A stretch of 64,000 bases of DNA from an uncultured Oscillospiraceae bacterium (lineage in GTDB: Bacteria; Bacillota; Clostridia; Oscillospirales; QAMX01), in contig CAZEUG010000002.1 in the NCBI GenBank assembly GCA_964515055.1, positions 38,032-102,031 on the forward strand, given 5' to 3'. The notes below the pieces were generated by a model. The model saw only the letters and a list, made by a program, of their open reading frames with translations. It did no database searches and was not told the DNA's origin. Of this stretch, positions 47,601-60,299 are shown piece after piece. The stretch's first letter is position 1; each line of letters starts with the position of its first letter. The translations under genes were made by a program, and so were the position numbers.

Positions 47601-48536
47601 TTATTGCAGACCCATTGCCGCGTTCAGGCGTTCTGACAGCTCATGCGCGGCGTTGTAGCCCATGCGTTTATTGCGGTCATTCATGGCGGCGACCTCGATG
47701 ATAATGGCCAGGTTGCGCCCCGGGCGCACCGGCACCGTCAGGGACGGCACATCGATGCCCAAAATGTTCGTGTATTCCGTATCCTCGCCCAGGCGGTCAT
47801 AGATTTTGCCCTCTTTCCAGGGTTCCAGATGAATCACCAGATCCACCTTTTCCGTCATTTTGACGGCAGCCATACCGAACAGGCGCTTGACGTCAATGAT
47901 GCCGATGCCGCGCAGCTCGACAAAATGGCGAATGATTTCCGGCGCGCTGCCAACCAGCGTTTTCGACGAGACGCGTTTGATCTCAACGGCATCGTCGGCG
48001 ATCAGGCGGTGGCCGCGCTTCACGAGCTCGATGGCCGTTTCGCTCTTGCCGACGCCGCTGTCGCCCATGAGCAGGATGCCCTCGCCGTACACCTCAATCA
48101 GCACGCCGTGCCGGGTGATGCGCGGAGCCAGGTGGATTTTCAGCGAAGCGATCAGCGCGCTCAGCGTGGTGGAGGAGTCTTCCTTTGTCCGCAGAATCGT
48201 CACGCCGTACTCCTTCGCCAGCTCCAGACATTCAGGATACGGTTCAATGTTGCGCGTAATGATCAGCGCGGGAATGTTCATTTTGAAGAGCTTTTCCAGA
48301 GAGGAACGGCGGCGCTCCGGCGTAAACCGGCTCAGGAAGGTCGTTTCGACCTTGCCGATCATCTGGAGACGTTCATTGTCGAAGAAATCATAAAACCCGG
48401 CCAGCTGAAGTCCGCAGCGGTTGACATCGTCCGAATAGACCAGAATATCCCGATAGCCCTCCGGTGCCGTTTCAACTGTAAAGGCCAGCTCATCAATCAG
48501 CGTTCCGAGTGCCACACTGTATCGGACACTATCCAT
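47601..48536 (-). CDS. hprK: HPr kinase/phosphorylase
   Basis: GDSGVGKSETAIELVKRGHRLIADDAVE P-loop/signature. Start re-picked at MDSVRYS after GGAGAGGAG. Confidence 0.92.
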   Translation of the reverse strand: MDSVRYSVALGTLIDELAFTVETAPEGYRDILVYSDDVNRCGLQLAGFYDFFDNERLQMIGKVETTFLSRFTPERRRSSLEKLFKMNIPALIITRNIEPYPECLELAKEYGVTILRTKEDSSTTLSALIASLKIHLAPRITRHGVLIEVYGEGILLMGDSGVGKSETAIELVKRGHRLIADDAVEIKRVSSKTLVGSAPEIIRHFVELRGIGIIDVKRLFGMAAVKMTEKVDLVIHLEPWKEGKIYDRLGEDTEYTNILGIDVPSLTVPVRPGRNLAIIIEVAAMNDRNKRMGYNAAHELSERLNAAMGLQ

Positions 48537-48615
48537 TTTGGAACATCTCCTCTCCGTTGTGAACCGGTGCATTTCCGTCGCGAAAAGCATCCGGTTCCAA
48601 TTCTCATCCATTCTT

Positions 48616-48645
48616 ATTATACCATATCTGAGCCCTTTCCTGCAA
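48616..48645 (-). promoter_or_regulatory. Putative hprK promoter
   Basis: Minus strand TTGCAG-18 nt-TATAAT. Confidence 0.4.
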
Positions 48646-48724
48646 GTCTGTGCCGTTCGGAAAGGACTGATTTCTTTCTTCGAAGCATCCGGCAATGCTT
48701 TTCCCGTTTCCGGTCAAATTCCGT

Positions 48725-48753
48725 TTGACAGGGAAATCGATATCTGTTATACT
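48725..48753 (+). promoter_or_regulatory. Putative promoter of the nucleotidyltransferase-fold gene
   Basis: TTGACA-17 nt-(TGt)TATACT, 67 nt upstream of the ATG at 48820. Confidence 0.5.
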
Positions 48754-48819
48754 GAAAGTGTCAGCCATTCGAATTGACTGTAGATTTCGAATATTTCCTG
48801 CGGAAGGAGTGCATTGGTC

Positions 48820-50508
48820 ATGTCATCTGTGACCGATCGATTGATTCAGTTTCTTCAGCTGCACGCACCTGCCGAATCCGCCCCGGAGTTGGATCCCGCC
48901 TCTTTCCTGTCCGCACACCGTGTTCCCCTGCCGATCACCGTGGGGCATGAAGATCCGGGACAGAAAATTCAGCGGTTCACGCAGCGGCACATCCAGACAA
49001 AGCTGCTCCGTGCCATGCAGGAGTTGCTCACGTGTTTTCAATCGCATGGCATCGGTGTTCTGTTTCTGAAAGGGCCGTTGCTGGGATTGGAGCTGTATGG
49101 CGAAACCGGAATCCGTCCGACGTCCGATCTGGATCTGTTTGTTGCGGATGCTCAGGTTGCCGATGCATTGGACGCGTTGACGCAACTTGGCTATACCCGA
49201 ACAAACGGCACACCCTATTCCGGGAAAGACCGTGTTTACGAACTGAACCGTGGCGATATGCGTCTGAAAATGATGGGGCGGCATCTGACTGCCGTCCGAT
49301 CTTCCGGAAACTGGACGATCACGGTGGAATTGCACGCCACGCTGTTCCGGCACTATACTGCCATTTCACCGGCCTCTTTGGAATCGCAGGCAAACCGGAT
49401 CTTTTCTGACAGCCGCAGCATATCCTGTCAGGGAATTGACTACCCCGTTCCGGGCGTTTTGGATTCGTTCCTGATGCTCTGCACGCACTTTGCACGGCAC
49501 ACGGTGGAGGCATTGACCGCATTCTGTGCCAGAAAACAGCGGCCGCGTTTTCCGCTGCATCAGTTGCATGATCTCGCACTCTTTTTTGAGCACTGGTCGG
49601 ATGCGCTGTCGGCTTCCGACCTTTGGGCGCGTGCCCTGGTGTTCGGCAGTCAGGCCGATCTGGCCTTTGCCTGCCGGTATTTGCATGAAATATATGGAAT
49701 CGACCTTTGGCGATCGATTGCGCCATATCTTTCCGACAAACCGGATGACGATTTTGAAAATGATATCGTATGGAGCATTCTGCGGCAGCTTTCCGCTGCA
49801 GAGCTGCTGTTTTGTGCGCCGTCAGACAATCTCGCCCGTTTGCAATCCGTTGTTCCTGTCCGCCGCTGTTATGAACTCCGGAATGTGCGCGAGCTTTCTG
49901 CCGTTCCGGCCGACTATGAAGTCCGGGAGGTCTTTGATGATCTGTCCCGGCCACCTCTGCGGGAGCCCTATTCCTTCCGTTGGGGCGCTGCGTGTTCCGA
50001 TGAACAGCTCATGTTCTGCGTGGAAATTCCAACAGACCGTGTTGTCTTTCTGGGGGGATGCCAGAAAAATCTTCGTCGAAACTGTACCCGCTCCGACTGT
50101 CCGAAAGACTGTGCCGCACAGCACGGCGCCAATACGTTGATTCGTTTGCTGCTGCCCGGGACACATTGTCCGACCGAGGCCGGCAGCTGCATGAATCTGT
50201 ATGAAATCAGCATGATACAGACCGCAGACGGTCTCCGGCTCACAGCCGACCGAAACGGCCATCCGTTCGCCCTGTCCGGAGCTTCCGTTACAGAGAAAGA
50301 CGGCTTTTGGCAATTGCGGTTTCTGTTGCCGATCCCGGATTCCGGTGTTTCCAACGCCCTGCCTTTTATGATTTCCCGTGAAATTCTGCTTCCATTTCCG
50401 CACCGTCCGGAGCAAGCCATCGCCTTTAGTGTGCGCTGGCTGAACAGTGTTGCGGTTTCGCATCAGACCTGTCTGAGTTGCGGCCTGCTGCGAAAATCCC
50501 GCCTGTAA
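48820..50508 (+). CDS. Nucleotidyltransferase-fold protein (uncharacterised NTP_transf_5/PF14907-like) with ~250-aa C-terminal extension
   Basis: FLKGPLLGLELYGETGIRPTSDLDLFV matches the K-G...Y...R..D.D..V signature of that family as I remember it. ATG 10 nt after GGAAGGAG. Confidence 0.65.
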   Translation: MSSVTDRLIQFLQLHAPAESAPELDPASFLSAHRVPLPITVGHEDPGQKIQRFTQRHIQTKLLRAMQELLTCFQSHGIGVLFLKGPLLGLELYGETGIRPTSDLDLFVADAQVADALDALTQLGYTRTNGTPYSGKDRVYELNRGDMRLKMMGRHLTAVRSSGNWTITVELHATLFRHYTAISPASLESQANRIFSDSRSISCQGIDYPVPGVLDSFLMLCTHFARHTVEALTAFCARKQRPRFPLHQLHDLALFFEHWSDALSASDLWARALVFGSQADLAFACRYLHEIYGIDLWRSIAPYLSDKPDDDFENDIVWSILRQLSAAELLFCAPSDNLARLQSVVPVRRCYELRNVRELSAVPADYEVREVFDDLSRPPLREPYSFRWGAACSDEQLMFCVEIPTDRVVFLGGCQKNLRRNCTRSDCPKDCAAQHGANTLIRLLLPGTHCPTEAGSCMNLYEISMIQTADGLRLTADRNGHPFALSGASVTEKDGFWQLRFLLPIPDSGVSNALPFMISREILLPFPHRPEQAIAFSVRWLNSVAVSHQTCLSCGLLRKSRL

Positions 50509-50577
50509 GGCTTTTGCCGTACACCGCGCCCACCGAGTCGTAAAACGAAATCGGTGCATTTATGATTTTCCAGCCTT

Positions 50578-50820
50578 CGCACAAAACAGTTGTCAGGCAA
50601 AGAAAGCGTATGGAAATTGAAATGTTTTCACAGCCTTGGTGTTGGTATGGTGGTGTATTTGTGAAAGCGCAGACTGAGCCTGTTTCAGGTGATGTCTGCG
50701 CTTTTTTGGCCATTGTCAGGAGAAATCAAAAAACGACCGTATCATTCGTCAGCGAATTATTGATAAGAGGATGGTTGAATCATGGGAACGGAATGGAAAA
50801 AGAGTCGGTATGCATTCTTT
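50578..50820 (+). repeat. Direct repeat copy 1 (243 bp)
   Basis: Identical to 50929-51171 except G/C at 50592/50943. Contains a terminator hairpin, an RBS and the first 13 codons of the rSAM gene. Confidence 0.95.
50664..50707 (+). terminator. Intrinsic terminator (in repeat copy 1; likely ends the nucleotidyltransferase transcript)
   Basis: AAAGCGCAGAC...(inner CCTG/CAGG)...GTCTGCGCTTTTTT. Confidence 0.65.
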
Positions 50821-50862
50821 TGTCTTTTCTATTTTTTTGTAAAGTGCTTGACAGGTGAATAA
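50782..50862 (+). pseudogene. Duplicated 5' stub of the rSAM gene (13 native codons, then 13 unrelated codons and TAA)
   Basis: ATGGGAACGGAATGGAAAAAGAGTCGGTATGCATTCTTT is identical to 51133-51171; the reading frame then diverges (MGTEWKKSRYAFF-CLFYFFVKCLTGE*). Confidence 0.6.
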
Positions 50863-50876
50863 AGAAGTGATATAAT
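50848..50876 (+). promoter_or_regulatory. Consensus sigma-A promoter in the 108-bp segment between the repeat copies
   Basis: TTGACA-17 nt-(TGa)TATAAT: perfect -35, optimal spacer, extended -10 and perfect -10. Confidence 0.65.
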
Positions 50877-50928
50877 GTTAACAGTTAAAGAATCCAATGA
50901 GTTTCATCAGCAATCAACCGCATAAATC

Positions 50929-51171
50929 CGCACAAAACAGTTCTCAGGCAAAGAAAGCGTATGGAAATTGAAATGTTTTCACAGCCTTGGTGTTGGTATG
51001 GTGGTGTATTTGTGAAAGCGCAGACTGAGCCTGTTTCAGGTGATGTCTGCGCTTTTTTGGCCATTGTCAGGAGAAATCAAAAAACGACCGTATCATTCGT
51101 CAGCGAATTATTGATAAGAGGATGGTTGAATCATGGGAACGGAATGGAAAAAGAGTCGGTATGCATTCTTT
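50929..51171 (+). repeat. Direct repeat copy 2 (243 bp; leader and start of the rSAM gene)
   Basis: See copy 1; the offset between copies is exactly 351 bp. Confidence 0.95.
51015..51058 (+). terminator. Terminator hairpin inside the rSAM 5' leader (candidate attenuator)
   Basis: Same hairpin + T6 as 50664-50707, lying between the consensus promoter (50848-50876) and the rSAM ATG (51133). Confidence 0.55.
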
Positions 51172-52455
51172 ATTGAGCAGGAAAATGGTGCAATGATCAT
51201 TTATCATTCGACCACAGGTTTTATCTTACAATGTACAGAACCGGAATACATTGAAAAGGCACAAAAGATCGCCAATCAGTCCGCTTTTGAAATGGATGAA
51301 GGAAATGATTTAATGTGTTTGCTGCGAGACAAAGGTGTCCTTTTGGAAAACGATTTTGACGAAGATGCTCAAATTCGGCAATTGTACGATCGGGTCGTTA
51401 TGCACAGAAATCAACTTTCTCTGACGTTAATCGTAACGAGGCAGTGTAATTTTCGTTGCGTTTACTGCGGTCAGAAACACGAGAGCAACAAGCGTATGTC
51501 TCGTGAGATCTATGATAGAGTCCTATTGATGATTGAAAAAACATGCCATGATAAAAAGATAGACAGTGTTTCCATTTCTTTTTTTGGCGGAGAACCGCTT
51601 TTGGAATGTGAAGGAATTCTATATTTTCTGGAGAAATTACAGGGATTATCAAAAAAGACCGGAATTCCCTATTATGCAGGAATGACCACAAATGCATATT
51701 TACTGACAAAAAATAATTTCGAGCGTTTGGCACAGTTGAATTGTTTGGATTATCAAATAACATTGGATGGTATGGATGAGACTCATGACAAAAAAAGATA
51801 TCTCATCGGAAAAAGGAAAACATGGAAAACCATCGTAGATAATCTGCTCTATATCAAGTCAACAGATTATCCTTTCAAAATCATTTTGAGGACAAATTTT
51901 GATACAGAAGTCTTGCAATCAGTAGATTCATATTTGAATTTCGTGTCAGAAAATCTGAATGACGATCGTATCCTGATGTATCACGAAACCATTAAGGACC
52001 ACGGGAATCCCGAACAAAACGAATACATGTCGCAGTCTGAAGCGATTTTAAGCAACGTCGAAATTTCTCGTCTTTTGAAAGAGAAGGGTTTGAAATCTTC
52101 ACTTGTTTTTTCTTCAACAACGCCTGCCTGTTCGATGTGTCGAGCAGGAATTCCTGATTTTTATGTAATCGATTACGATGGAAGTATCAAAAGATGTACA
52201 CACCGATTGGATACTGAACCAAACTACCTGGGCAATCTGTCAGATGATGGTTCCATGATCATTGACCCTTCTCTGGATGCAAAATGGATTTATCGGGACT
52301 ATTTGTCCGATGATGAATGTAAAGAGTGCAAATTACTTCCTCTGTGTTTTGGAAAACAGTGTCCTGTTGCGCGGGTTGATCCCCAATTGGAGTTCGATTG
52401 TAACAAAGATTTGCGTGCTCTGGAACTGGAGGAAATCCTGCGCGTTCATTTATAG
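51133..52455 (+). CDS. Radical SAM/SPASM peptide maturase with N-terminal RRE-like domain
   Basis: CNFRCVYC (CX3CX2C). C-terminal CRAG-x10-DG-SIKR-C then CKECKLLPLCFGKQC ... DC gives the SPASM Cys pattern. About 95 aa precede the rSAM core. Confidence 0.9.
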   Translation: MGTEWKKSRYAFFIEQENGAMIIYHSTTGFILQCTEPEYIEKAQKIANQSAFEMDEGNDLMCLLRDKGVLLENDFDEDAQIRQLYDRVVMHRNQLSLTLIVTRQCNFRCVYCGQKHESNKRMSREIYDRVLLMIEKTCHDKKIDSVSISFFGGEPLLECEGILYFLEKLQGLSKKTGIPYYAGMTTNAYLLTKNNFERLAQLNCLDYQITLDGMDETHDKKRYLIGKRKTWKTIVDNLLYIKSTDYPFKIILRTNFDTEVLQSVDSYLNFVSENLNDDRILMYHETIKDHGNPEQNEYMSQSEAILSNVEISRLLKEKGLKSSLVFSSTTPACSMCRAGIPDFYVIDYDGSIKRCTHRLDTEPNYLGNLSDDGSMIIDPSLDAKWIYRDYLSDDECKECKLLPLCFGKQCPVARVDPQLEFDCNKDLRALELEEILRVHL

Positions 52456-52495
52456 AGGGACAGGATTACAATTCAGGAAGAAAGGAGGATCAAGT

Positions 52496-52663
52496 ATGCA
52501 TGTGGTTCAAGATGCGGCAACCCCCGCAATGATTGCACGGAGAGTGCAAAGCAATGGTTGTGATTGCAATTGTAAGTGTCATGGTGGTACCGGCAGCTCC
52601 GGGGGAAGTAATTGCAACTGTCGTTGCAGCCAACCGTCTAAATCCAATAAGGTTGTGGATTGA
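52496..52663 (+). CDS. Cys-rich RiPP precursor candidate A1 (55 aa)
   Basis: AGGAGG 7 nt upstream of the ATG. MHVVQDAATPAMIARRVQSNGCDCNCKCHGGTGSSGGSNCNCRCSQPSKSNKVVD. It is hidden in the 3' end of tracked ORF 52262-52663. Confidence 0.75.
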   Translation: MHVVQDAATPAMIARRVQSNGCDCNCKCHGGTGSSGGSNCNCRCSQPSKSNKVVD

Positions 52664-52675
52664 AAGGAGGGACAA

Positions 52676-52825
52676 ATTATACATATCGTAAAGGATATTG
52701 CGATTCCTGCGTCCATTGCACGCGCCACTCAGGAAAACGGTTGCAATTGCAATTGCAATTGCAATTGTCATGGTGGTAGCGATGGCGGTTCCGGCGGTAC
52801 CAAGTGCAACTGTCGTTGCAGCTAA
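52676..52825 (+). CDS. Cys-rich RiPP precursor candidate A2 (48-49 aa, non-canonical ATT/ATA start)
   Basis: AGGAGGG RBS at 52665-52671; paralogue of A1: (M)IHIVKDIAIPASIARATQENGCNCNCNCNCHGGSDGGSGGTKCNCRCS*. No ATG/GTG/TTG in frame; ATT at 52676, and ATA at 52679 aligns with the A1 ATG. Confidence 0.6.
   Translation: MIHIVKDIAIPASIARATQENGCNCNCNCNCHGGSDGGSGGTKCNCRCS
52742..52765 (+). repeat. (TGCAAT)x4 hexanucleotide tandem repeat encoding (Cys-Asn)4
   Basis: Read directly: tgcaattgcaattgcaattgcaat, followed by tgt. Confidence 0.95.
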
Positions 52826-52832
52826 ACCGCCT

Positions 52833-52875
52833 GTCACGGCAGGCAGATTTTCGAGAAATCTCTGCCTGTCGTGAC
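52833..52875 (+). promoter_or_regulatory. Intra-operon stem-loop after the precursor genes (partial terminator or mRNA stabiliser)
   Basis: 15-bp stem GTCACGGCAGGCAGA/TCTGCCTGTCGTGAC (one G-U); the T5 run begins 7 nt after the stem, 8 nt after the A2 stop. Confidence 0.5.
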
Positions 52876-52921
52876 TCCAGATTTTTCCAATCATTCAACA
52901 AACAGAAAAGAGGATTCTGTT

Positions 52922-54736
52922 ATGAAAACCTTAAAAAGGGTACTTGGTTGCCAGTCTTTCATGTTGAAGCGAATGTATCGGGACAGCAAACGGCTCTTTT
53001 ATGTGACCCTGATTCAGTCGATTCTGTCCGGTATTTATCCAACCATCGAGCTGGTTGTCAGCAGGAACCTGATTGATGCCCTGGTACGGCTTTCCCTGCG
53101 GGATGCCATGATCAGTATTTCTGTCCTGATCGGCAGCTCCCTGCTCTATTATATTCTGAAAAAGCTGCTGAGTTTTATTGCCGACAATGCGTATAACCTG
53201 ATTCGGCGCCAGATGCGGTTTGACCTTTTTGAAAAGACCTGCTCGCTCGATCTGGCCGTGGCAGATCTGCCGGAAAACAGAACCCTGTATGAAGAAGCAC
53301 AGGGTGCCAACCAGAACAACCGTTGCATGCGGGTTCTGGATTCCTTTTTCAGCATTTTTACCGCCTGTATCACGTTGATTTCTTCCTATATCGTGATGAT
53401 CACAGTTGATCCATGGATTATGATTGTCATTGTCGCCGTGGTCATTCTGCAATCGTTTATCACCATTCGATCGCAGAAGCTGGCTTATGAGACCTGGCGG
53501 GAAGACGCCCGAACCAACAAGGAGGCGTCCTATGTTCTGGGGCTGCTGTTTGACCGCAACTGTGCCTTTGAAATGCGGCTGCACAATCTGTCACAATGGG
53601 TCATTCGGAAATTCAACAAGGTGCAGACCGAATCCGATCTGCTTTGGATTGAAAACAACAAAAAGCAGCAGAGAAACGATGTTTTGAATTTTGCCGTACA
53701 GCTGGTGCAGAAAGCGATTCTGTACGTTTATCTGGCACTGCAGATGCTTTACGCCAATATGACCGTTGCGAATTTCACACTGTGCTTCAATTCTCTGAAC
53801 CAGATTTCCAACAATCTGGTCGCCCTGATTCGCACATTTATTGATATTTTTGAAAATTCCAAGTATATTTACAGCTATAAAAAATATCTGGCGCTGGAAA
53901 ATACAATTGCCGTGCATCGGCCGGATGAAAAGCCGGTCGCCAGAAATGAAGCCCGCAACAACGAAATTGTCTTTGATCACGTCAGCTTCCGTTATCCGGA
54001 AGCACCGGCAGACGTGCTGCACGATATCAACCTGCATCTGGAGCCGCAGAAGTTTTATGTCATCGTTGGTGCGAACGGCGCCGGGAAAACGACGCTGATC
54101 AATCTGCTGATGCGTTTGTATGATCCGTCGAGCGGTTCGATTCGCCTGGGGCAGACCGATATTCGCGACTATGATTTTCAAAGCTATCGGGACTGTTTTG
54201 GTGTGGTTTTCCAGAATTTCAAGGTTTTTGATTATTCGTTCTTTGAAAACATCACGCTATCCGAGGAGGAAAATGAGGAGATCGATGCAGAGGTTCAGCA
54301 GGTCATTCAGAAGGCCGGATTGGCCAACAAGGTGTCACAGCTTGCCAAAGGGATGCACACCTGTGTCGGTAAAGCGTTTGACCAGGATGGCGTCAAGTTA
54401 TCCGGCGGCGAATATCAGAAGGTTGCTCTGGCCAGAGCGCTGTACAGAGACAGTCAGATTCTGATTCTGGACGAGCCATCCAGCGCATTGGATGCGTTGG
54501 CAGAGGATGATCTGATTCAGACCTTCCAGCGAGCCAGCACCAACCAGACGGTTTTCTATATTTCGCACCGTCTCTCCGTGGCGCGCTTTGCATATCGCGT
54601 GATTTTTGTCGGCGATCATACGATTTTGGGCTGCGGCAGCCACGACGAGCTGATGCAAACCTGTCCGCAGTATGCAGAGATGTATACGGCACAGGCCAAA
54701 TATTACACGGAACAGGAAACCGCCCCTTCGCACTGA
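52922..54736 (+). CDS. ABC exporter, fused permease + ATPase (no C39 peptidase domain)
   Basis: Six-TM N-terminal half; GANGAGKTT Walker A, LSGGEYQKVALARAL signature, ILILDEPSSALD Walker B. Start re-picked at MKTLKRVLG. Confidence 0.9.
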   Translation: MKTLKRVLGCQSFMLKRMYRDSKRLFYVTLIQSILSGIYPTIELVVSRNLIDALVRLSLRDAMISISVLIGSSLLYYILKKLLSFIADNAYNLIRRQMRFDLFEKTCSLDLAVADLPENRTLYEEAQGANQNNRCMRVLDSFFSIFTACITLISSYIVMITVDPWIMIVIVAVVILQSFITIRSQKLAYETWREDARTNKEASYVLGLLFDRNCAFEMRLHNLSQWVIRKFNKVQTESDLLWIENNKKQQRNDVLNFAVQLVQKAILYVYLALQMLYANMTVANFTLCFNSLNQISNNLVALIRTFIDIFENSKYIYSYKKYLALENTIAVHRPDEKPVARNEARNNEIVFDHVSFRYPEAPADVLHDINLHLEPQKFYVIVGANGAGKTTLINLLMRLYDPSSGSIRLGQTDIRDYDFQSYRDCFGVVFQNFKVFDYSFFENITLSEEENEEIDAEVQQVIQKAGLANKVSQLAKGMHTCVGKAFDQDGVKLSGGEYQKVALARALYRDSQILILDEPSSALDALAEDDLIQTFQRASTNQTVFYISHRLSVARFAYRVIFVGDHTILGCGSHDELMQTCPQYAEMYTAQAKYYTEQETAPSH

Positions 54737-54745
54737 AAGAAGCTG

Positions 54746-55630
54746 ATGACCGTGCTCGTGTATAGTATATACGGTTTATCCGTGGAATCGAATCTGGAGC
54801 TGTCTTATGTAGATGCAGGCCGTCCAGGTGTCTGTGATATGCGGCTGCACGTGTCCTTTGCGGAAATGCCGCCGGTTCAGCCCATACGGATTCTGGAATC
54901 CGAACAATGGCTGACCATTGAGCTGTTCCCCTTCGCGGTTTATCGGCTGGACAGGTATTCCAACGATGTTTTTTGTCAGGCAGCAGATTATGAGTCATTT
55001 TACTCGACATTTTTCAATCTGCCGTGCTCGGTCTTTCTTTTGCAGCGCGGTGATCTGCTTTTGCACGCGTCATCACTGGTTCACAGTCAAACAGGTGAAT
55101 TGATCGGTTTTGCCGGGCAGAAAGGTGTCGGGAAAAGCACGCTGGTGCATCTGTTGTGCGGGGAAACGTATCAGATTTATGCGGATGATACCCTGCGGAT
55201 TCCGATGGATACCTCTATGGGATTCCGGGGAAATTCTCTTTTGAAACTGACGCCGGAGACGTCCGCCCTCATTCAGGGCAGGCTTCAACTGACGGGACAT
55301 CAAAATGCAGTCGGAAAAGATTATGCCGCCATTTCAACAGATTCCCGGCAACGTCCGATTCGGGCAATCGTTCAACTGACGCGAACTTCGGAGGTAACTT
55401 TTTCCATCCGGCCGGTAATCGCCCCGTTACAGCGTGCCCAAATCATTTGCAGACATCTGACAGGCATCCCGTTCTGGACGGCTTCCATGATTCAAAAGGT
55501 CATGCAGCTTGTCAAAAAAGTCGAGATTCCCGTTTATTCCATGCGAATCCCCGATTCTCTGCATCGTTTGGAGCAGCAAAAGTCGGACATCCTCTCAGCC
55601 CTTGAACAGATGACGAACTCGGTTCTGTGA
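54746..55630 (+). CDS. HPr-kinase-like P-loop protein (putative RiPP peptide kinase)
   Basis: LHASSLVHSQTGELIGFAGQKGVGKSTLVHLLCGETYQIYADDTLRI parallels the genuine HprK in this window ([44 protein letters not shown]). Confidence 0.7.
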   Translation: MTVLVYSIYGLSVESNLELSYVDAGRPGVCDMRLHVSFAEMPPVQPIRILESEQWLTIELFPFAVYRLDRYSNDVFCQAADYESFYSTFFNLPCSVFLLQRGDLLLHASSLVHSQTGELIGFAGQKGVGKSTLVHLLCGETYQIYADDTLRIPMDTSMGFRGNSLLKLTPETSALIQGRLQLTGHQNAVGKDYAAISTDSRQRPIRAIVQLTRTSEVTFSIRPVIAPLQRAQIICRHLTGIPFWTASMIQKVMQLVKKVEIPVYSMRIPDSLHRLEQQKSDILSALEQMTNSVL

Positions 55631-55638
55631 CATTCGGT

Positions 55639-55678
55639 AAAAAAGCGTCTGCACGCATTCTGTGCAGACGCTTTTTTT
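55639..55678. terminator. Bidirectional intrinsic terminator between the island and clpB
   Basis: A6-GCGTCTGCAC-loop-GTGCAGACGC-T7. Confidence 0.85.
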
Positions 55679-55712: not shown

Positions 55713-58364
55713 TTAGCGTACTTCGTCGGGTGAATAGACTTCACCGGTCAGAACCGGGTGGCAGGTCAGGCGGCCATCGGCTGCATCGAGCACGAGGGTG
55801 GAGCCGGCATCCAGATTGCCGGCCAGAATTTCGCGGGCAATGAGCGTTTCCGCCATTCTTTGCAGGCAGCGCTTCAGCGGTCGTGCGCCGTAAACCGGGT
55901 CGTAGCCCTGATCGATGATGAGCGCCCTGGCCGCATCGGTCACTTCCAGCTGCAGCCCGCCTGCGGCGCGGTCGGCCATACGCGTTTGCAGACCGGTCAG
56001 CAGCAGATCGACGATGGCGTTCAGGTTTTCCTTGGTCAGCGGTTTGAAGAATACGATTTCGTCCAGGCGGTTCAGGAATTCCGGTCGGAACGCTGCCCGG
56101 AGCTCGGCCTGCACGCTGGCGCGTGCCGCTTCGCTGACGGAGCCGTCCGGTGCAATGCCGTCCAGCAGATACTGGCTGCCGAGGTTGGAGGTCAGGATGA
56201 TGATCGTATTTTTGAAATCAACCGTGCGCCCCTGGCTGTCGGTGATGCGGCCATCGTCCAGAATTTGCAGCAGGATATTGAACACATCCGGGTGCGCCTT
56301 CTCCACCTCATCGAAGAGGATGACGCTGTAGGGGTGGCGGCGGACGGCTTCGGTGAGCTGGCCGCCCTCGTCATAGCCGACATATCCCGGAGGCGCACCG
56401 ATCAGGCGGGACACGCTGAATTTCTCCATATACTCCGTCATGTCAATCCGCACCAGACTGCGTTCGTCATCGAACAGACTTTCGGCCAGCGTTTTGGCCA
56501 GCTCCGTTTTGCCGACACCGGTCGGCCCTAAAAAGAGGAAGCTGCCGATTGGGCGGTTGGGGTCTGCGATCCCGGCACGGCTGCGCTGAATGGCTTCACT
56601 GACCAGGCGCACTGCTTCATCCTGTCCGACGACACGCCGGTGCAGGATATCTTCGAGTCGCAGCAGCTTTTCCCGTTCGCCCTCGACGAGTCGGGATACC
56701 GGGATGCCCGTCCAGCGTCCAACGACCTCGGCGATCTCTGCATCGGTTACGGTGGAACGGACGAGTCGGTTCTGGTTCTGCCGTTCTGCCGTCTGTTCGG
56801 CCTCCGCCAGCTGTTTTTTCAGCGTCGGCAGCTCGGAATATTGCAGGCGCGCCGCCTTTTCATATTCGCCGTGCAGCTGAGCCTGTTCCATTTCGCCTGT
56901 TTTCTTCTCGATCTCCGTTTTGATCTGCTTGACGGTTTCCGCCGCTTCCTTTTCTGATGTCCAGCGCGCCTTCATTTCGCGGAGCTGATCCTGCTTTTCC
57001 GCAAGCTCCGCCGTCAGCTTGGCCAGACGGTCCCTGGAGAGCTGATCTTCCTCTTTTTTCAGCGACATTTCCTCGATTTCCATCTGCATGATATCGCGGC
57101 GCAGATCATCCAGCTCGCTCGGCATGGAGTCAATCTCCGTGCGAATCATGGCACACGCCTCATCGACCAGGTCAATCGCCTTATCCGGCAGGAACCGGTC
57201 GGTGATATACCGGTTGGACAGCGTGGCCGCCGCCACCAGCGCGTTGTCGTGAATGCGGACGCCGTGGAAGATCTCATACCGTTCCTTCAGTCCGCGCAGG
57301 ATGGAGATCGTATCCTCCACAGTCGGCTCCTCCACGATGACCGGCTGGAATCTCCGTTCCAGTGCGGCGTCCTTTTCGATGTATTTGCGGTATTCGTCCA
57401 GCGTGGTGGCGCCGATGCAGTGCAGCTCGCCACGCGCCAGCATCGGCTTGAGCAGGTTGCCCGCGTCCATGGAGCCCTCTGTCTTCCCGGCACCGACGAT
57501 TGTATGCAGTTCATCAATGAAGAGCAGGATGCGCCCATCCGCCTTTTTGACCTCATTCAGAACGGCTTTCAGGCGTTCCTCAAATTCGCCGCGATATTTT
57601 GCACCGGCCACCAGTGCGCCCATATCCAGCGAGAAAATGGTCTTTTCCTTCAGGCCGTCCGGCACATCACCCCGCACGATTCGCTGCGCCAGACCCTCGG
57701 CGATGGCGGTTTTGCCGACGCCCGGTTCGCCGATCAGGACGGGGTTATTTTTGCTCTTGCGGGACAGGATGCGGATTACGCTCCGGATTTCGGCGTCCCG
57801 GCCGATGACCGGATCCAGCTTCTGTGCCCGTGCGCGTTCGACCAGGTCTGTGCCGTATTTGTTCAGCACGTCATACGTATCCTCCGGATGGTCACTTGTC
57901 ACCGGTGCGCTTTTCACGCGGGACAGCTCCTGCAAAAAGCGTTCCTGCGTCACGCCGTGCCGTTGAAAAATGCCCTGTACCGTCCGGCCGCCTTCAGCAA
58001 TCAGACCCAGCATCAGGTGTTCAACGGAGAGGTATTCGTCCTTCAGCTGCTCTGCCATTTTTTCGGCGAAGCGCAGCACAGCCGACACCTCGCTCGATGG
58101 ATACAGATCGCCGCCCGTCCCCGTCACCTTCGGCAGCCGTTCCATTTCGGCATTCAGCTCGCCCAGCATGGCGCCAACCAGATCGGTGTTGCCGCTCTGG
58201 CGACCCATCCGTTCCAGGAGCGTCCCGATCAGGCCGCCCTCCTGCGACAGCAGCGCATACGCCAGATGCTCCGGTGCGAGCGTCTGATTCTGTTTGTCCC
58301 GCGCCAGATTTTGTGCGCGGTTGATCACATCTATCGTCTTTTGTGTCATTTTTTCTGCATTCAT
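55713..58364 (-). CDS. clpB: ATP-dependent chaperone ClpB
   Basis: 883 aa; two AAA+ modules ([22 protein letters not shown]) with a long middle coiled-coil. Confidence 0.95.
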
Positions 58365-59393: not shown

Positions 59394-60299
59394 ATGAAGT
59401 ATTGTCCGAATTGCGGCACCGCCGCTGAAGACAACGCCGTTTTCTGTACGCAGTGCGGAAATCATTTTGCCCCGGCCCCGCAGCAGGCAGCACCGGAGCA
59501 GCCGGTGTACGCACAGCAGCAGGCAGCACCGCAACAGCCGGTGTACGCACAGCAGCAGGCAGCACCGCAGCAGCCGATGTACGCTCCGCAGCAGCCCATG
59601 TATGCTCCGGCTCCGCAGAAGAAAAACAGGGGCGTGTTCATTGCGCTGATCATTGTCATCGTCCTTCTGCTGGCCGTCGGCGGTTTCTTTGCCTTCCAAT
59701 ATTTCTTCTCCGACTCGGACAAGGATGATCGGGTCGATAGACCGCTGACGTCCGAAACCACTCCGCCGGCAACCAACCCGCCGGTGGTTCTCGGCTATAC
59801 CAAGGGTTCCATCGAGAACGGTTACTATGTGAACGAATGGGCCAATCTGAAAATTCAGACCAGCGGCCACTGGTCTGGTCTCAACTGGGATGTCGGCACC
59901 GATGAAGCATATGCTTCTTATCAAAACGCTTCTACGGACTGTGGTCTGATCCTTGCGGAACGCTATGCCGGTTATCAGGTCGCGATCGCATTTGAGGATC
60001 TGACTGCTTCCAATCCTTCCATTTCCGAGTCCGAATACATGGACATTATTTTGGATGGACTGATCTCGGTTTACTCTTCGTCCGGTATTGAGTATTCCGT
60101 TCTTTCCTCCTACTGGTCTTACAATCTTTGCGGCAATTCTTATCTCACAGGTGGTGTGTCCCTGGCCGCCGGCGAGACCAGCTTTGTGCAGGTGTTCCTG
60201 ACCCGGAAGCTGGATGATCATATAATCTTCATTGCACTGACGCTTCCGACGATCGAATCGGCCGACGAGATTCTGGAAGACTTTGTACCGGTGAATTGA
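59394..60299 (+). CDS. Zinc-ribbon membrane protein with Gln/Pro-rich repeats and extracytoplasmic domain
   Basis: MKYCPNCG...FCTQCG zinc ribbon, (QQAAPxQPxYA)3 repeats, one TM helix (VFIALIIVIVLLLAVGGFFAF). Confidence 0.75.
   Translation: MKYCPNCGTAAEDNAVFCTQCGNHFAPAPQQAAPEQPVYAQQQAAPQQPVYAQQQAAPQQPMYAPQQPMYAPAPQKKNRGVFIALIIVIVLLLAVGGFFAFQYFFSDSDKDDRVDRPLTSETTPPATNPPVVLGYTKGSIENGYYVNEWANLKIQTSGHWSGLNWDVGTDEAYASYQNASTDCGLILAERYAGYQVAIAFEDLTASNPSISESEYMDIILDGLISVYSSSGIEYSVLSSYWSYNLCGNSYLTGGVSLAAGETSFVQVFLTRKLDDHIIFIALTLPTIESADEILEDFVPVN
59481..59588 (+). repeat. 36-bp in-frame tandem repeat x3
   Basis: cagcaggcagcaccg(g/c)a(g/a)cagccg(g/a)tgtacgc(a/t)c(a/c)g units read directly. Confidence 0.9.

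Follow-up and report, generated by a model that had tools for sequence, protein, structure and literature searches.

A radical SAM peptide island carrying a putative serine kinase and a PF14907 nucleotidyltransferase in an uncultured Oscillospiraceae bacterium

Results

A six-gene island between hprK and clpB

The window analyzed here is a stretch of 64,000 nucleotides from an uncultured Oscillospiraceae bacterium (assembly GCA_964515055.1, contig CAZEUG010000002.1, positions 38,032 to 102,031 of the forward strand), in which a co-directional plus-strand block of genes lies between the minus-strand genes hprK and clpB (Table 1). An earlier interpretation of the same DNA, made from the letters alone (the sequence-only reading), had recognized six components in this block, and all six were found in place: a nucleotidyltransferase (NTase) of the PF14907 family, a radical S-adenosylmethionine (rSAM) maturase of the SPASM type, two short Cys-rich peptides (pep1 and pep2), an ABC exporter and a 294-aa kinase-like P-loop protein. 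We conclude that the block is genuine, a gene island that was acquired horizontally and is devoted to a ribosomal peptide natural product. On balance, we favor the view that this ~6.9-kb island represents a conserved, uncharacterized type of pathway for peptides made by the ribosome and modified after translation (RiPPs), in which the rSAM enzyme would introduce cross-links, the kinase would phosphorylate a Ser residue, the PF14907 enzyme would append an adduct and the ABC protein would export the product.

The host is closely related to the metagenome-assembled genome (MAG) CAYUXI010000013 (L132), the DnaG proteins of the two being 98% identical. The entire island is present in L132 and absent from another relative at 83% DnaG identity (L133), which defines the block as an accessory island. 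The ORFs between hprK and clpB include no Asn-synthase-like cyclase (C), no B1 (PqqD) and no B2 (transglutaminase-like) protein, and no protease is encoded among the island ORFs, in line with the initial impression that a lasso cyclase, a B protease and a leader peptidase are all missing.

Table 1. Features of the island and its immediate flanks (window coordinates)
Feature	Position	Strand	Details
hprK	47601-48695	−	TIGR00679, 365 bits
Sigma-70-like promoter 5' of NTase gene	48725-48753	+	TTGACA-17-TATACT, with TG; 11/12 consensus positions, consensus match only
PF14907 NTase gene	48820-50508	+	562 aa from ATG; 564 aa if from TTG 48814
Non-coding stretch between NTase and rSAM genes			625 bp
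Leader copy X1	50578-50820	+	terminator hairpin ~50664-50710; 25-codon rSAM stub 50782-50859
Spacer Y	50821-50928		108 bp, between X1 and X2
Consensus promoter in Y	50848-50876	+	TTGACA-17-TATAAT, extended -10 TG (TGnTATAAT); 12/12; kept in L132 and L123
Leader copy X2 (5' leader of rSAM operon)	50929-51171	+	terminator 51015-51061, ribosome-binding site, first 13 rSAM codons
rSAM/SPASM maturase with N-terminal RRE-like domain	51133-52455	+	440 aa
Precursor peptide 1 (pep1)	52496-52663	+	55 aa, ATG start
Precursor peptide 2 (pep2), pep1 paralogue	52676-52825 (start approximate)	+	no canonical start codon
Hairpin between peptide genes and ABC gene	52833-52875	+	15 bp; -27.9 kcal/mol, z -5.8; clean U-run absent
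ABC exporter, permease and ATPase fused	52922-54736	+	604 aa from ATG; GTG 52871 possible
HprK/PEPCK-fold P-loop kinase-like gene	54746-55630	+	294 aa
Bidirectional intrinsic terminator between kinase-like gene and clpB	55639-55678		17-bp stem, A7 and U7 flanks; 91-nt stretch -35.9 kcal/mol, z -4.1
clpB	55713-58364	−	

Recurrence of the cassette in unrelated genomic contexts

The combination of rSAM, CxCxC peptide, ABC exporter, kinase-like protein and PF14907 protein recurs in at least 10 unrelated genomic contexts (L003 (L003-5), L006/7, L008/9, L124, L125, L126, L090, L091, L114 and L132). The rSAM homologues in these differing neighborhoods share 41-65% identity with the window enzyme (the L091 cassette being more remote, with an rSAM protein 28% identical), and the accompanying P-loop homologues are 284-294 aa long. 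Gene order varies while gene content is kept: in the window and in L090 the NTase gene comes upstream, in the other cassettes downstream. The sequence-only reading had proposed surveying the neighborhoods of rSAM and peptide homologues, and it is this survey that revealed the kinase-like and PF14907 genes as regular companions of the cassette. It had also named the conservation of the short peptides beside homologous rSAM genes as a point on which it could fail; CxCxC peptides adjoin such genes in more than 14 loci.

Farther out, rSAM relatives at 35-38% identity (in MAGs of Lachnospiraceae and Eubacteriales and in Tepidibacter thalassicus, L134) are accompanied only by a peptide and an ABC gene. 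On the other hand, two loci (L103 and L105) contain remote relatives of the kinase inside lasso peptide clusters, together with PqqD, Transglut_core3, Asn_synthase, ABC and PF14907 proteins. The presence of the pair in these lasso clusters and its absence from the 35-38% rSAM relatives identify the kinase and the NTase, as far as comparative sequence analysis goes, as an accessory module common to lasso pathways and to one clade of rSAM pathways.

Association of the kinase/NTase pair with a C-terminal serine

A precursor ending in Ser is found in all ten cassettes that have both the kinase and the NTase and in none of the five related cassettes that lack them (L010-L013 and L134; Table 2). Fisher's exact test gives p = 0.001 for 10/10 against 0/4, and 1/3003 (~3e-4) once L134 is added. 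The sequence-only reading had not remarked on this regularity, which lends it further strength. L135, which has both genes, was left out of the count, the locus being cut before any peptide.

Table 2. C-termini of precursor peptides in cassettes with and without the kinase/NTase pair
C-terminus	Loci	Kinase + NTase
...CNCRCS	window pep2, L003, L090	present
...CNCHCS	L128, L132	present
...CGYTS	L006	present
...GACS	L008	present
...PGCS	L124, L126	present
...CPGS	L125	present
...CVETS	L114	present
...VFCS	L091	present
...CGCGC	L010, L011	absent
...CGCNC	L012	absent
...NCRG	L013	absent
...CGCGCE	L134	absent

We consider this association likely to be functional because it extends to L091, an independent rSAM lineage, because the peptides beside two further kinases (L096 and L106, described below) also end in Ser, and because phosphorylation of such a residue is known: in paeninodin and pseudomycoidin the C-terminal Ser is phosphorylated (by PadeK and PsmK, respectively), and hexoses are then added to the phosphate in a PsmN-dependent manner (PMC6993621).

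The two further loci, from Romboutsia lituseburensis DSM 797 (L096:3185-7927) and a Clostridium sp. MAG (L106:4621-8324), encode HprK-like kinases of ~22% identity that adjoin an ABC exporter and 2-3 small peptides, all of them Ser-ending (..INES, ..RQDS, ..GGQS, ..PPLS). The leaders of these peptides show what we take to be a resemblance to the leader of the paeninodin precursor PadeA (W.xPxhxxLG). No homologue of the rSAM or PF14907 protein was detected by tblastn in either locus, and, judging ORFs by size, none but the ABC exporter in the stretch listed is as large as a lasso cyclase (~600 aa). These peptides may form a class of linear phosphopeptides, one of them from a cultured strain.

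Some individual cassettes have features of their own. Beside the L008 cassette lies a second, divergent small-peptide cluster (L008:6869-9762), which comprises PqqD, a PF27840 (ScmC) protein, a 353-aa protein and two acidic peptides (38 and 42 aa). The PF14907 gene of L126 is truncated next to an rve transposase (L126:8868-10299), the rSAM gene of L135 is split in two (L135:9450-10793), and the kinase-like gene of L006/L007 is frameshifted (L006:11334-12039).

The radical SAM maturase and the exporter

The 440-aa enzyme matches PF04055 (E 9.5e-16) and Fer4_12 in a Pfam scan and carries the CX3CX2C motif as CNFRCVYC. The three Cys residues of this motif (C105, C109, C112) and seven SPASM Cys residues (C336, C355, C396, C399, C405, C410, C423) are invariant among 37 homologues. 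The full length of its AlphaFold2 (AF2) model (pLDDT 93.1), including the N-terminal domain, aligns with CteB and TigE, both of them bearers of a RiPP recognition element (RRE); residues 4-90 form beta strands and three helices (beta3/alpha3) in the manner of such an element. The best fold matches are CteB (5WHY/5WGG, E 5e-18) and TigE, with the anaerobic sulfatase-maturating enzyme (anSME) also among the close matches. The rSAM motif, the full SPASM Cys pattern and the RRE-sized N-terminal extension noticed in the sequence-only reading are thus borne out by the Cys invariance and by the alignment of the model with CteB. The profile searches recommended at that time gave a mixed outcome. PF04055 was matched, but Pfam SPASM was not (at E <= 0.01), though the protein aligns full length with SPASM enzymes, and all NCBIfam rSAM families scored under their cut-offs, the best being TIGR04463 (177 bits with a cut-off of 525, E 5e-52) and CefB, NF038107 (173 bits with a cut-off of 600, E 1e-50). 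Overall, the model identifies the protein as an RRE-rSAM-SPASM peptide maturase with predicted leader binding, and its scores, being far under the TIGR04463 and CefB cut-offs, place it by sequence in a separate subfamily outside the curated models.

The ABC protein, kept in every cassette compared, matches ABC_tran (E 1.3e-30), with MsbA/HlyB-type half-transporters as its best models. The Pfam scan found only ABC_tran and P-loop families and no C39 peptidase domain, and TIGR01193 aligns only with residues 265-606, so that the two scans agree with the original description of an exporter devoid of a C39 domain.

The PF14907 and kinase-like proteins

The PF14907 (NTP_transf_5) match of the NTase spans residues 58-295 and is well above threshold (E 6.5e-31, 108 bits with a cut-off of 31.2), which settles the nucleotidyltransferase fold and the PF14907 type suggested at first sight for this 562-aa protein; the C-terminal ~270 aa matched no family. 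When the protein was aligned with PF14907 proteins from eight other cassettes and from the two lasso clusters (L103 and L105), K84, Y93, R99, D103, D105 and H223 were invariant, and G85 nearly so, across rSAM- and lasso-linked clusters. For D103/D105, PsmN offers a parallel in type with its essential pair D134/D136 (PMC6993621), the PsmN sequence itself standing outside this alignment.

The 294-aa protein had been described as visibly homologous to HprK. This holds at the level of the superfamily (fold, P-loop and DD site) but not at that of Pfam Hpr_kinase_C (PF07475), whose cut-off the protein does not pass. Among the 31 aligned members of its family, 13 give weak Hpr_kinase_C hits (best E 1.3e-3), and a distant member, P0298, passes the cut-off (41.7 bits vs 33.3); 23 of the 31 weakly match NCBIfam HprK_rel_A or HprK_rel_B (TIGR04352/TIGR04355; best E ~1.5e-6, ~20 bits with a cut-off of 200). 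Compared directly with the HprK encoded in the same window, the protein gives a BLASTP alignment with 33% identity over 48 aa (E 5e-4), and hhalign aligns 114 columns across the P-loop and the DD site (E 1.6e-4). H107, K126-G-x-G-K-x-T132 (P-loop G-x-K-G-x-G-K-S-T) and D147-D148-T149 are invariant in the 31-member alignment.

In the AF2 model of this protein (pLDDT 92.7), the best 50 fold matches in the PDB (Foldseek) are all phosphoenolpyruvate carboxykinases (PEPCKs), with E from 9e-10 to 6e-7, and no HprK structure is among those 50; the C-terminal domain of HprK shares the PEPCK fold class. The model thus assigns the protein to the HprK/PEPCK-like kinase superfamily, not to Pfam's HprK family, the predicted relationship to HprK resting on fold, motifs and transitive hits. 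Its D147/D148 pair parallels the D158/D159 pair carried by PsmK (PMC6993621).

A search with the single sequence recovered only relatives of at least 82% identity, and a profile was needed for remote ones; in an exhaustive search with it, the number of representative clusters was 104 with E <= 1e-30 and rose to 451 with E <= 1e-10. Against PDB sequences the profile gave generic P-loop/ABC hits only. Similarly, a scan of the loci with it was dominated by the generic P-loop pattern, with few true relatives among the matches listed.

Precursor peptides

All precursors share a leader of ~20 residues, at least one G-CxCxC block and Gly-rich linkers. The Cys residues are fixed, and the x positions of the CxC units are free to change (D, N, K, H, S, G, R, Q). 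Against NCBIfam, the peptides gave no significant family match. In the window, pep1 reads MHVVQDAATPAMIARRVQSNG-CDCNCKC-HGGTGSSGGSN-CNCRC-S followed by QPSKSNKVVD, a 10-aa tail after the Ser that results from loss of the stop codon (TAA to CAA). The same change is present in L001, and the counterparts stop at ...C-S-TAA in L130, a contig of the same species, and in L128 and L132. The second peptide, pep2, reads (I)IHIVKDIAIPASIARATQENG-CNCNCNCNC-HGGSDGGSGGTK-CNCRC-S-stop. From the preceding stop codon to the core it has no ATG, GTG or TTG, only ATT 52676, ATA 52679 and ATC 52685; a canonical start is likewise missing in L001 and L130, and an ATG is present in L128 and L132. An intact AGGAGG (52665-52670) lies 5-8 nt before the ATT/ATA codons, and pep1 also follows an AGGAGG. 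Of the two paralogous Cys-rich ORFs, each behind an AGGAGG, that had been reported from the sequence alone, the paralogy and the AGGAGG elements are therefore real, but pep2 is not an ORF by the usual start rule.

Within the pep2 core (52741-52764), the number of TGCAAT (Cys-Asn) repeats varies, with CNCNCNCNC in the window and CNCNCNC in L001 and L130. Since the copy number differs between strains, the length of the pep2 core shifts as that of a microsatellite does.

State of the locus in this strain and its sisters

Related strains have lost parts of the island. In L123 (5812-6102) the rSAM and precursor genes are deleted after rSAM codon 59, out of frame; in L127 (3680-4200) and L129 (540-1060) the deletion begins after rSAM codon 29 and fuses the gene in frame to a peptide core (MGTEW...HSATGCNCDCHCSSGETNGHCLCS-stop). 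L128, which is intact, and L127 and L129, which carry the deletion, encode identical copies of the kinase protein (P0123), which indicates that the deletions are recent polymorphisms. Judged from these sequences, it looks as if the island is eroding in this species group. Both precursor genes of the window deviate from the family norm, and the output of product may accordingly be low or altered. The stop-loss, the missing start codon and the sister deletions lower our confidence in a canonical product from this very strain and leave what we conclude about the family unaffected.

The GC content of the island is uneven (rSAM 0.387, peptides ~0.49, ABC 0.487, kinase-like 0.505 and NTase 0.557; 0.577 for the whole window). 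The label of a low-GC cluster originally given to the block suits the rSAM, ABC and kinase-like genes but not the NTase gene. The GC content at third codon positions is 0.39 in the rSAM gene and 0.56-0.61 in its NTase, ABC and kinase-like neighbors within the island, a gap suggesting that the island is of mosaic origin or that its rSAM gene and leader were recently replaced from a low-GC donor.

Leader duplication and regulatory elements

The 5' region of the rSAM operon contains two copies of a leader segment, X1 and X2, separated by the spacer Y and identical at 242 of 243 positions. The 351-bp X-Y duplication was considered as an assembly artefact, as Y and one X are missing from L001, and this was rejected: the independent MAG L132 (4400-5080) has the same X1-Y-X2 layout with copies that are only ~82-84% alike. 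From the diverged copies in the same layout, the duplication appears to be old and real, and homogenized in the present strain; L001 is probably a collapsed repeat or a recombinant.

The terminator hairpin of X2 is stable (-26.7 kcal/mol, z -5.2, then U6), and a 70-nt core of X, made up of a G/U-rich segment and the terminator, shows much stronger conservation than the flanking sequence in L123, L127, L129 and L132. An Rfam search of 48-56.5 kb returned no match for the leader; the only hits were Thr_leader below threshold at the terminator and miRNA noise over the TGCAAT repeat. The position of the conserved terminator between promoter and rSAM start suggests an attenuator or leader RNA, perhaps a novel one. 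A terminator also cuts off the NTase gene from the rSAM operon. The hairpin between the peptide genes and the ABC gene is kept in L128, L130 and L132 and is possibly an attenuator or an mRNA-stabilizing element; comparable hairpins 3' of precursor genes in other bacteriocin operons raise the level of precursor transcript relative to that of the enzymes.

Elsewhere in the window and unrelated to the island, a 301-aa plus-strand ORF (59394-60299) combines an N-terminal zinc-ribbon-like CPNCG...CTQCG motif with tandem Q/P-rich repeats (QQAAPQQPVYA x3).

Discussion

Proposed pathway

Gene identities, folds, conserved synteny and the link between terminal Ser and kinase are observations; the pathway that we propose on top of them runs as follows. 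The N-terminal RRE domain of the rSAM protein would bind the ~20-residue leader of the small precursor, and the rSAM/SPASM enzyme would then convert the CxCxC thiols into intramolecular thioether cross-links, most likely sactionines to Gly residues of the linkers. The HprK/PEPCK-fold kinase would transfer phosphate to the C-terminal Ser at its side chain, in the way that PadeK and PsmK modify lasso peptides, and the PF14907 enzyme would add a hexose or another NDP-derived unit onto the Ser phosphate, as seen with PsmN. Export would fall to the protease-less ABC transporter, and leader removal, if any, to an enzyme encoded elsewhere. The closest chemical precedent is StsB, which installs three Cys-Gly sactionines on a CxCxCx4GxGxG core to form a hairpin (PMC10288494). 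By analogy, the Gly-rich linkers of our precursors fit the StsB pattern.

A wider generalization, which we advance tentatively and rate slightly below an even chance, is that HprK-fold kinases, often together with PF14907 proteins, constitute a class-independent module marking the C-terminal Ser of RiPPs with phosphate (and possibly a sugar or nucleotide), be they lasso peptides, rSAM-modified CxCxC peptides of gut and rumen Clostridia or apparently linear peptides such as those of L096 and L106.

Evidence against the pathway and alternative explanations

A number of points weigh against the pathway as drawn. Every chemical step, the order of the steps and the biological role of the product (antimicrobial, signal or metal binding) are deduced from sequence, models and analogy, and StsB itself belongs to a different (MftC-like) rSAM lineage. 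The rSAM protein falls under every curated NCBIfam cut-off, so its reaction is not assigned by family. The 294-aa protein has no Pfam Hpr_kinase_C hit at E <= 0.1, and the hhalign probability for its match to HprK is 51%. The correlation with Ser is partly phylogenetic, as a single rSAM clade accounts for most of the cassettes with a kinase. In the window itself, the last residue of pep1 is not Ser, pep2 lacks a canonical start, and the NTase gene differs in composition, has its own promoter and is followed by a terminator. Finally, both types of sister deletion keep the NTase, ABC and kinase genes, which leaves room for another role for these three.

The last points are open to an explanation that concerns this strain only and is compatible with the family reading, namely that the window copy is a decaying, non-producing remnant of a functional cassette type. 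We consider this unlikely, albeit with real weight: the loss of the pep1 stop (also in L001), the lack of a start for pep2 (also in L001 and L130) and the independent deletions at rSAM codons 59 and 29 all speak of decay, and the identity of P0123 across intact and deleted loci marks it as recent polymorphism. On the other hand, the rSAM, ABC, kinase-like and NTase frames are all intact, a perfect consensus promoter precedes the rSAM operon, the spacing of the AGGAGG makes weak initiation of pep2 at ATT/ATA conceivable, and the pep1 tail is perhaps trimmed or tolerated. Retention of the NTase, ABC and kinase genes after loss of the rSAM and precursor genes could also be taken to mean that the kinase-like protein and the PF14907 protein serve in self-protection or resistance, inactivating the cell's own or a competitor's peptide by phosphorylation or nucleotidylation and working alongside the ABC pump. 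The separate promoter and terminator of the NTase gene and the limited structural homology of a Phyre2 model of PsmN to aminoglycoside 2''-nucleotidyltransferases (PMC6993621) agree with such a role. However, the deletions are so recent (identical kinase) that retention says little, and the homologous lasso pair acts on the producer's own precursor or product in maturation (PMC6993621). The covariation of the kinase with the C-terminal Ser of the precursor fits both readings and points to the cell's own peptide as substrate; in sum, we regard a resistance function as quite improbable.

A different objection concerns the rSAM step. The CxC repeats and Gly-rich spacers resemble metal binders, the x positions are free while the Cys are fixed, the enzyme lies below all curated cut-offs and anSME is among its close structural matches. 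All this would suit a metallothionein-like peptide or metallophore with thiols that are free or altered without a thioether, the rSAM enzyme catalyzing epimerization, anSME-type Cys oxidation or a C-C link. We find this improbable, given that the closest structural match is the thioether synthase CteB, that the nearest sequence families are maturases of Cys-rich peptides, and that sactionine formation on a CxCxC core with Gly acceptors is proven (PMC10288494). The simplest alternative, in which the NTase and the P-loop protein are coincidental neighbors of a plain rSAM, peptide and ABC cluster, could appeal to the Lachnospiraceae, Eubacteriales and Tepidibacter cassettes that manage with these three genes and to the GC content of the NTase gene, unlike that of the rest of the island. 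It is effectively refuted by synteny, both genes accompanying the rSAM cassette in at least ten unrelated contexts in variable order, and members of the kinase-like family and rSAM homologues occurring on contigs of the same size.

Significance and comparison with known systems

If the wider generalization above holds, the cassette would define a new RiPP subclass, in which thioether-bridged peptides carry O-phospho(glycosyl)serine at their end. Phosphorylation is rare among RiPPs. A list of November 2025 names only microcin C, paeninodin, pseudomycoidin, phospeptin, salivaricin 10 and a cyanobactin case, and contains no rSAM class (PMC12639078). HprK-type peptide kinases have so far been characterized only in lasso pathways. 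If the pair is indeed wired to an rSAM maturase, phosphorylation of a C-terminal Ser would be a portable tailoring module, useful in RiPP engineering, and the kinases would probably read the leader and the terminal Ser rather than the lasso fold. A simple mining rule follows, an HprK-like kinase beside a Ser-ending peptide. The analysis also supplies an rSAM subfamily outside the curated models with a class of candidate CxCxC substrates. Moreover, the family resides in uncultured gut and rumen Clostridia, where its presence or absence at strain level and its decay bear on the dynamics of bacteriocins and immunity.

The literature search retrieved no paper on radical SAM, SPASM, sactipeptide or ranthipeptide systems in combination with HPr-kinase-like enzymes, and a compendium of ~15,000 RRE-associated rSAM enzymes mentions neither kinases nor nucleotidyltransferases. 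The suspicion, voiced in the sequence-only reading, that a hybrid of the kinase/NTase pair with an rSAM pathway had not been characterized is in keeping with this, no description having been found.

Among known systems, the paeninodin (PadeK) and pseudomycoidin (PsmK, PsmN) pathways share with the island a kinase of the HprK superfamily with a DD site, a DxD NTP-transferase, a Ser-ending substrate and an ABC exporter in the cluster. They differ in that the window is devoid of the Asn_synthase cyclase, B1 (PqqD) and B2 (transglutaminase-like) proteins and in that its Cys-rich precursors have a core predicted to be modified by an rSAM/SPASM enzyme. The kinases of the lasso clusters are only distantly related to that of the window (tblastn: 28% over 211 aa in L105; 45% over a 51-aa P-loop segment in L103). 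The curated kinase families nearest to the 294-aa family, HprK_rel_A and HprK_rel_B, are the only ones it touches, at the P-loop/DD region, with ~20 bits where 200 are required and with 294 aa in the window protein against 351 positions in the HprK_rel_B profile.

On the side of the maturase, StsA/StsB of Streptomyces sparsogenes and BlaA/BlaB likewise combine CxCxC followed by Gly-rich acceptors with an rSAM/SPASM enzyme helped by an RRE, in a paper that does not mention a kinase or NTase (PMC10288494). StsB is MftC-like with a separate RRE protein, whereas the window enzyme has a fused RRE and is nearest to TIGR04463/CefB, and the window cores, unlike StsA, have at least two CxCxC blocks and a C-terminal Ser. 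CteB, the maturase of SCIFF (thermocellin), has the same order of RRE, rSAM barrel and SPASM domain and is the best structural match over the whole length, but it shares only 16% identity, acts on another precursor family and belongs to a model, TIGR03974, to which the window enzyme scores 50 bits vs 425. TIGR04463 (rSAM_vs_C_rich) and NF038107 (CefB, Cys-every-fifth) are the nearest families, matching near full length and also associated with small Cys-rich peptides, the scores of the window enzyme nevertheless being far under their cut-offs; to our knowledge, both families are themselves uncharacterized. Overall, what the sequence comparisons present as new is an rSAM RiPP cassette equipped with a lasso-type Ser kinase/NTase module, together with a new rSAM subfamily and a new family of CxCxC precursors, a novel combination rather than a categorically new system.

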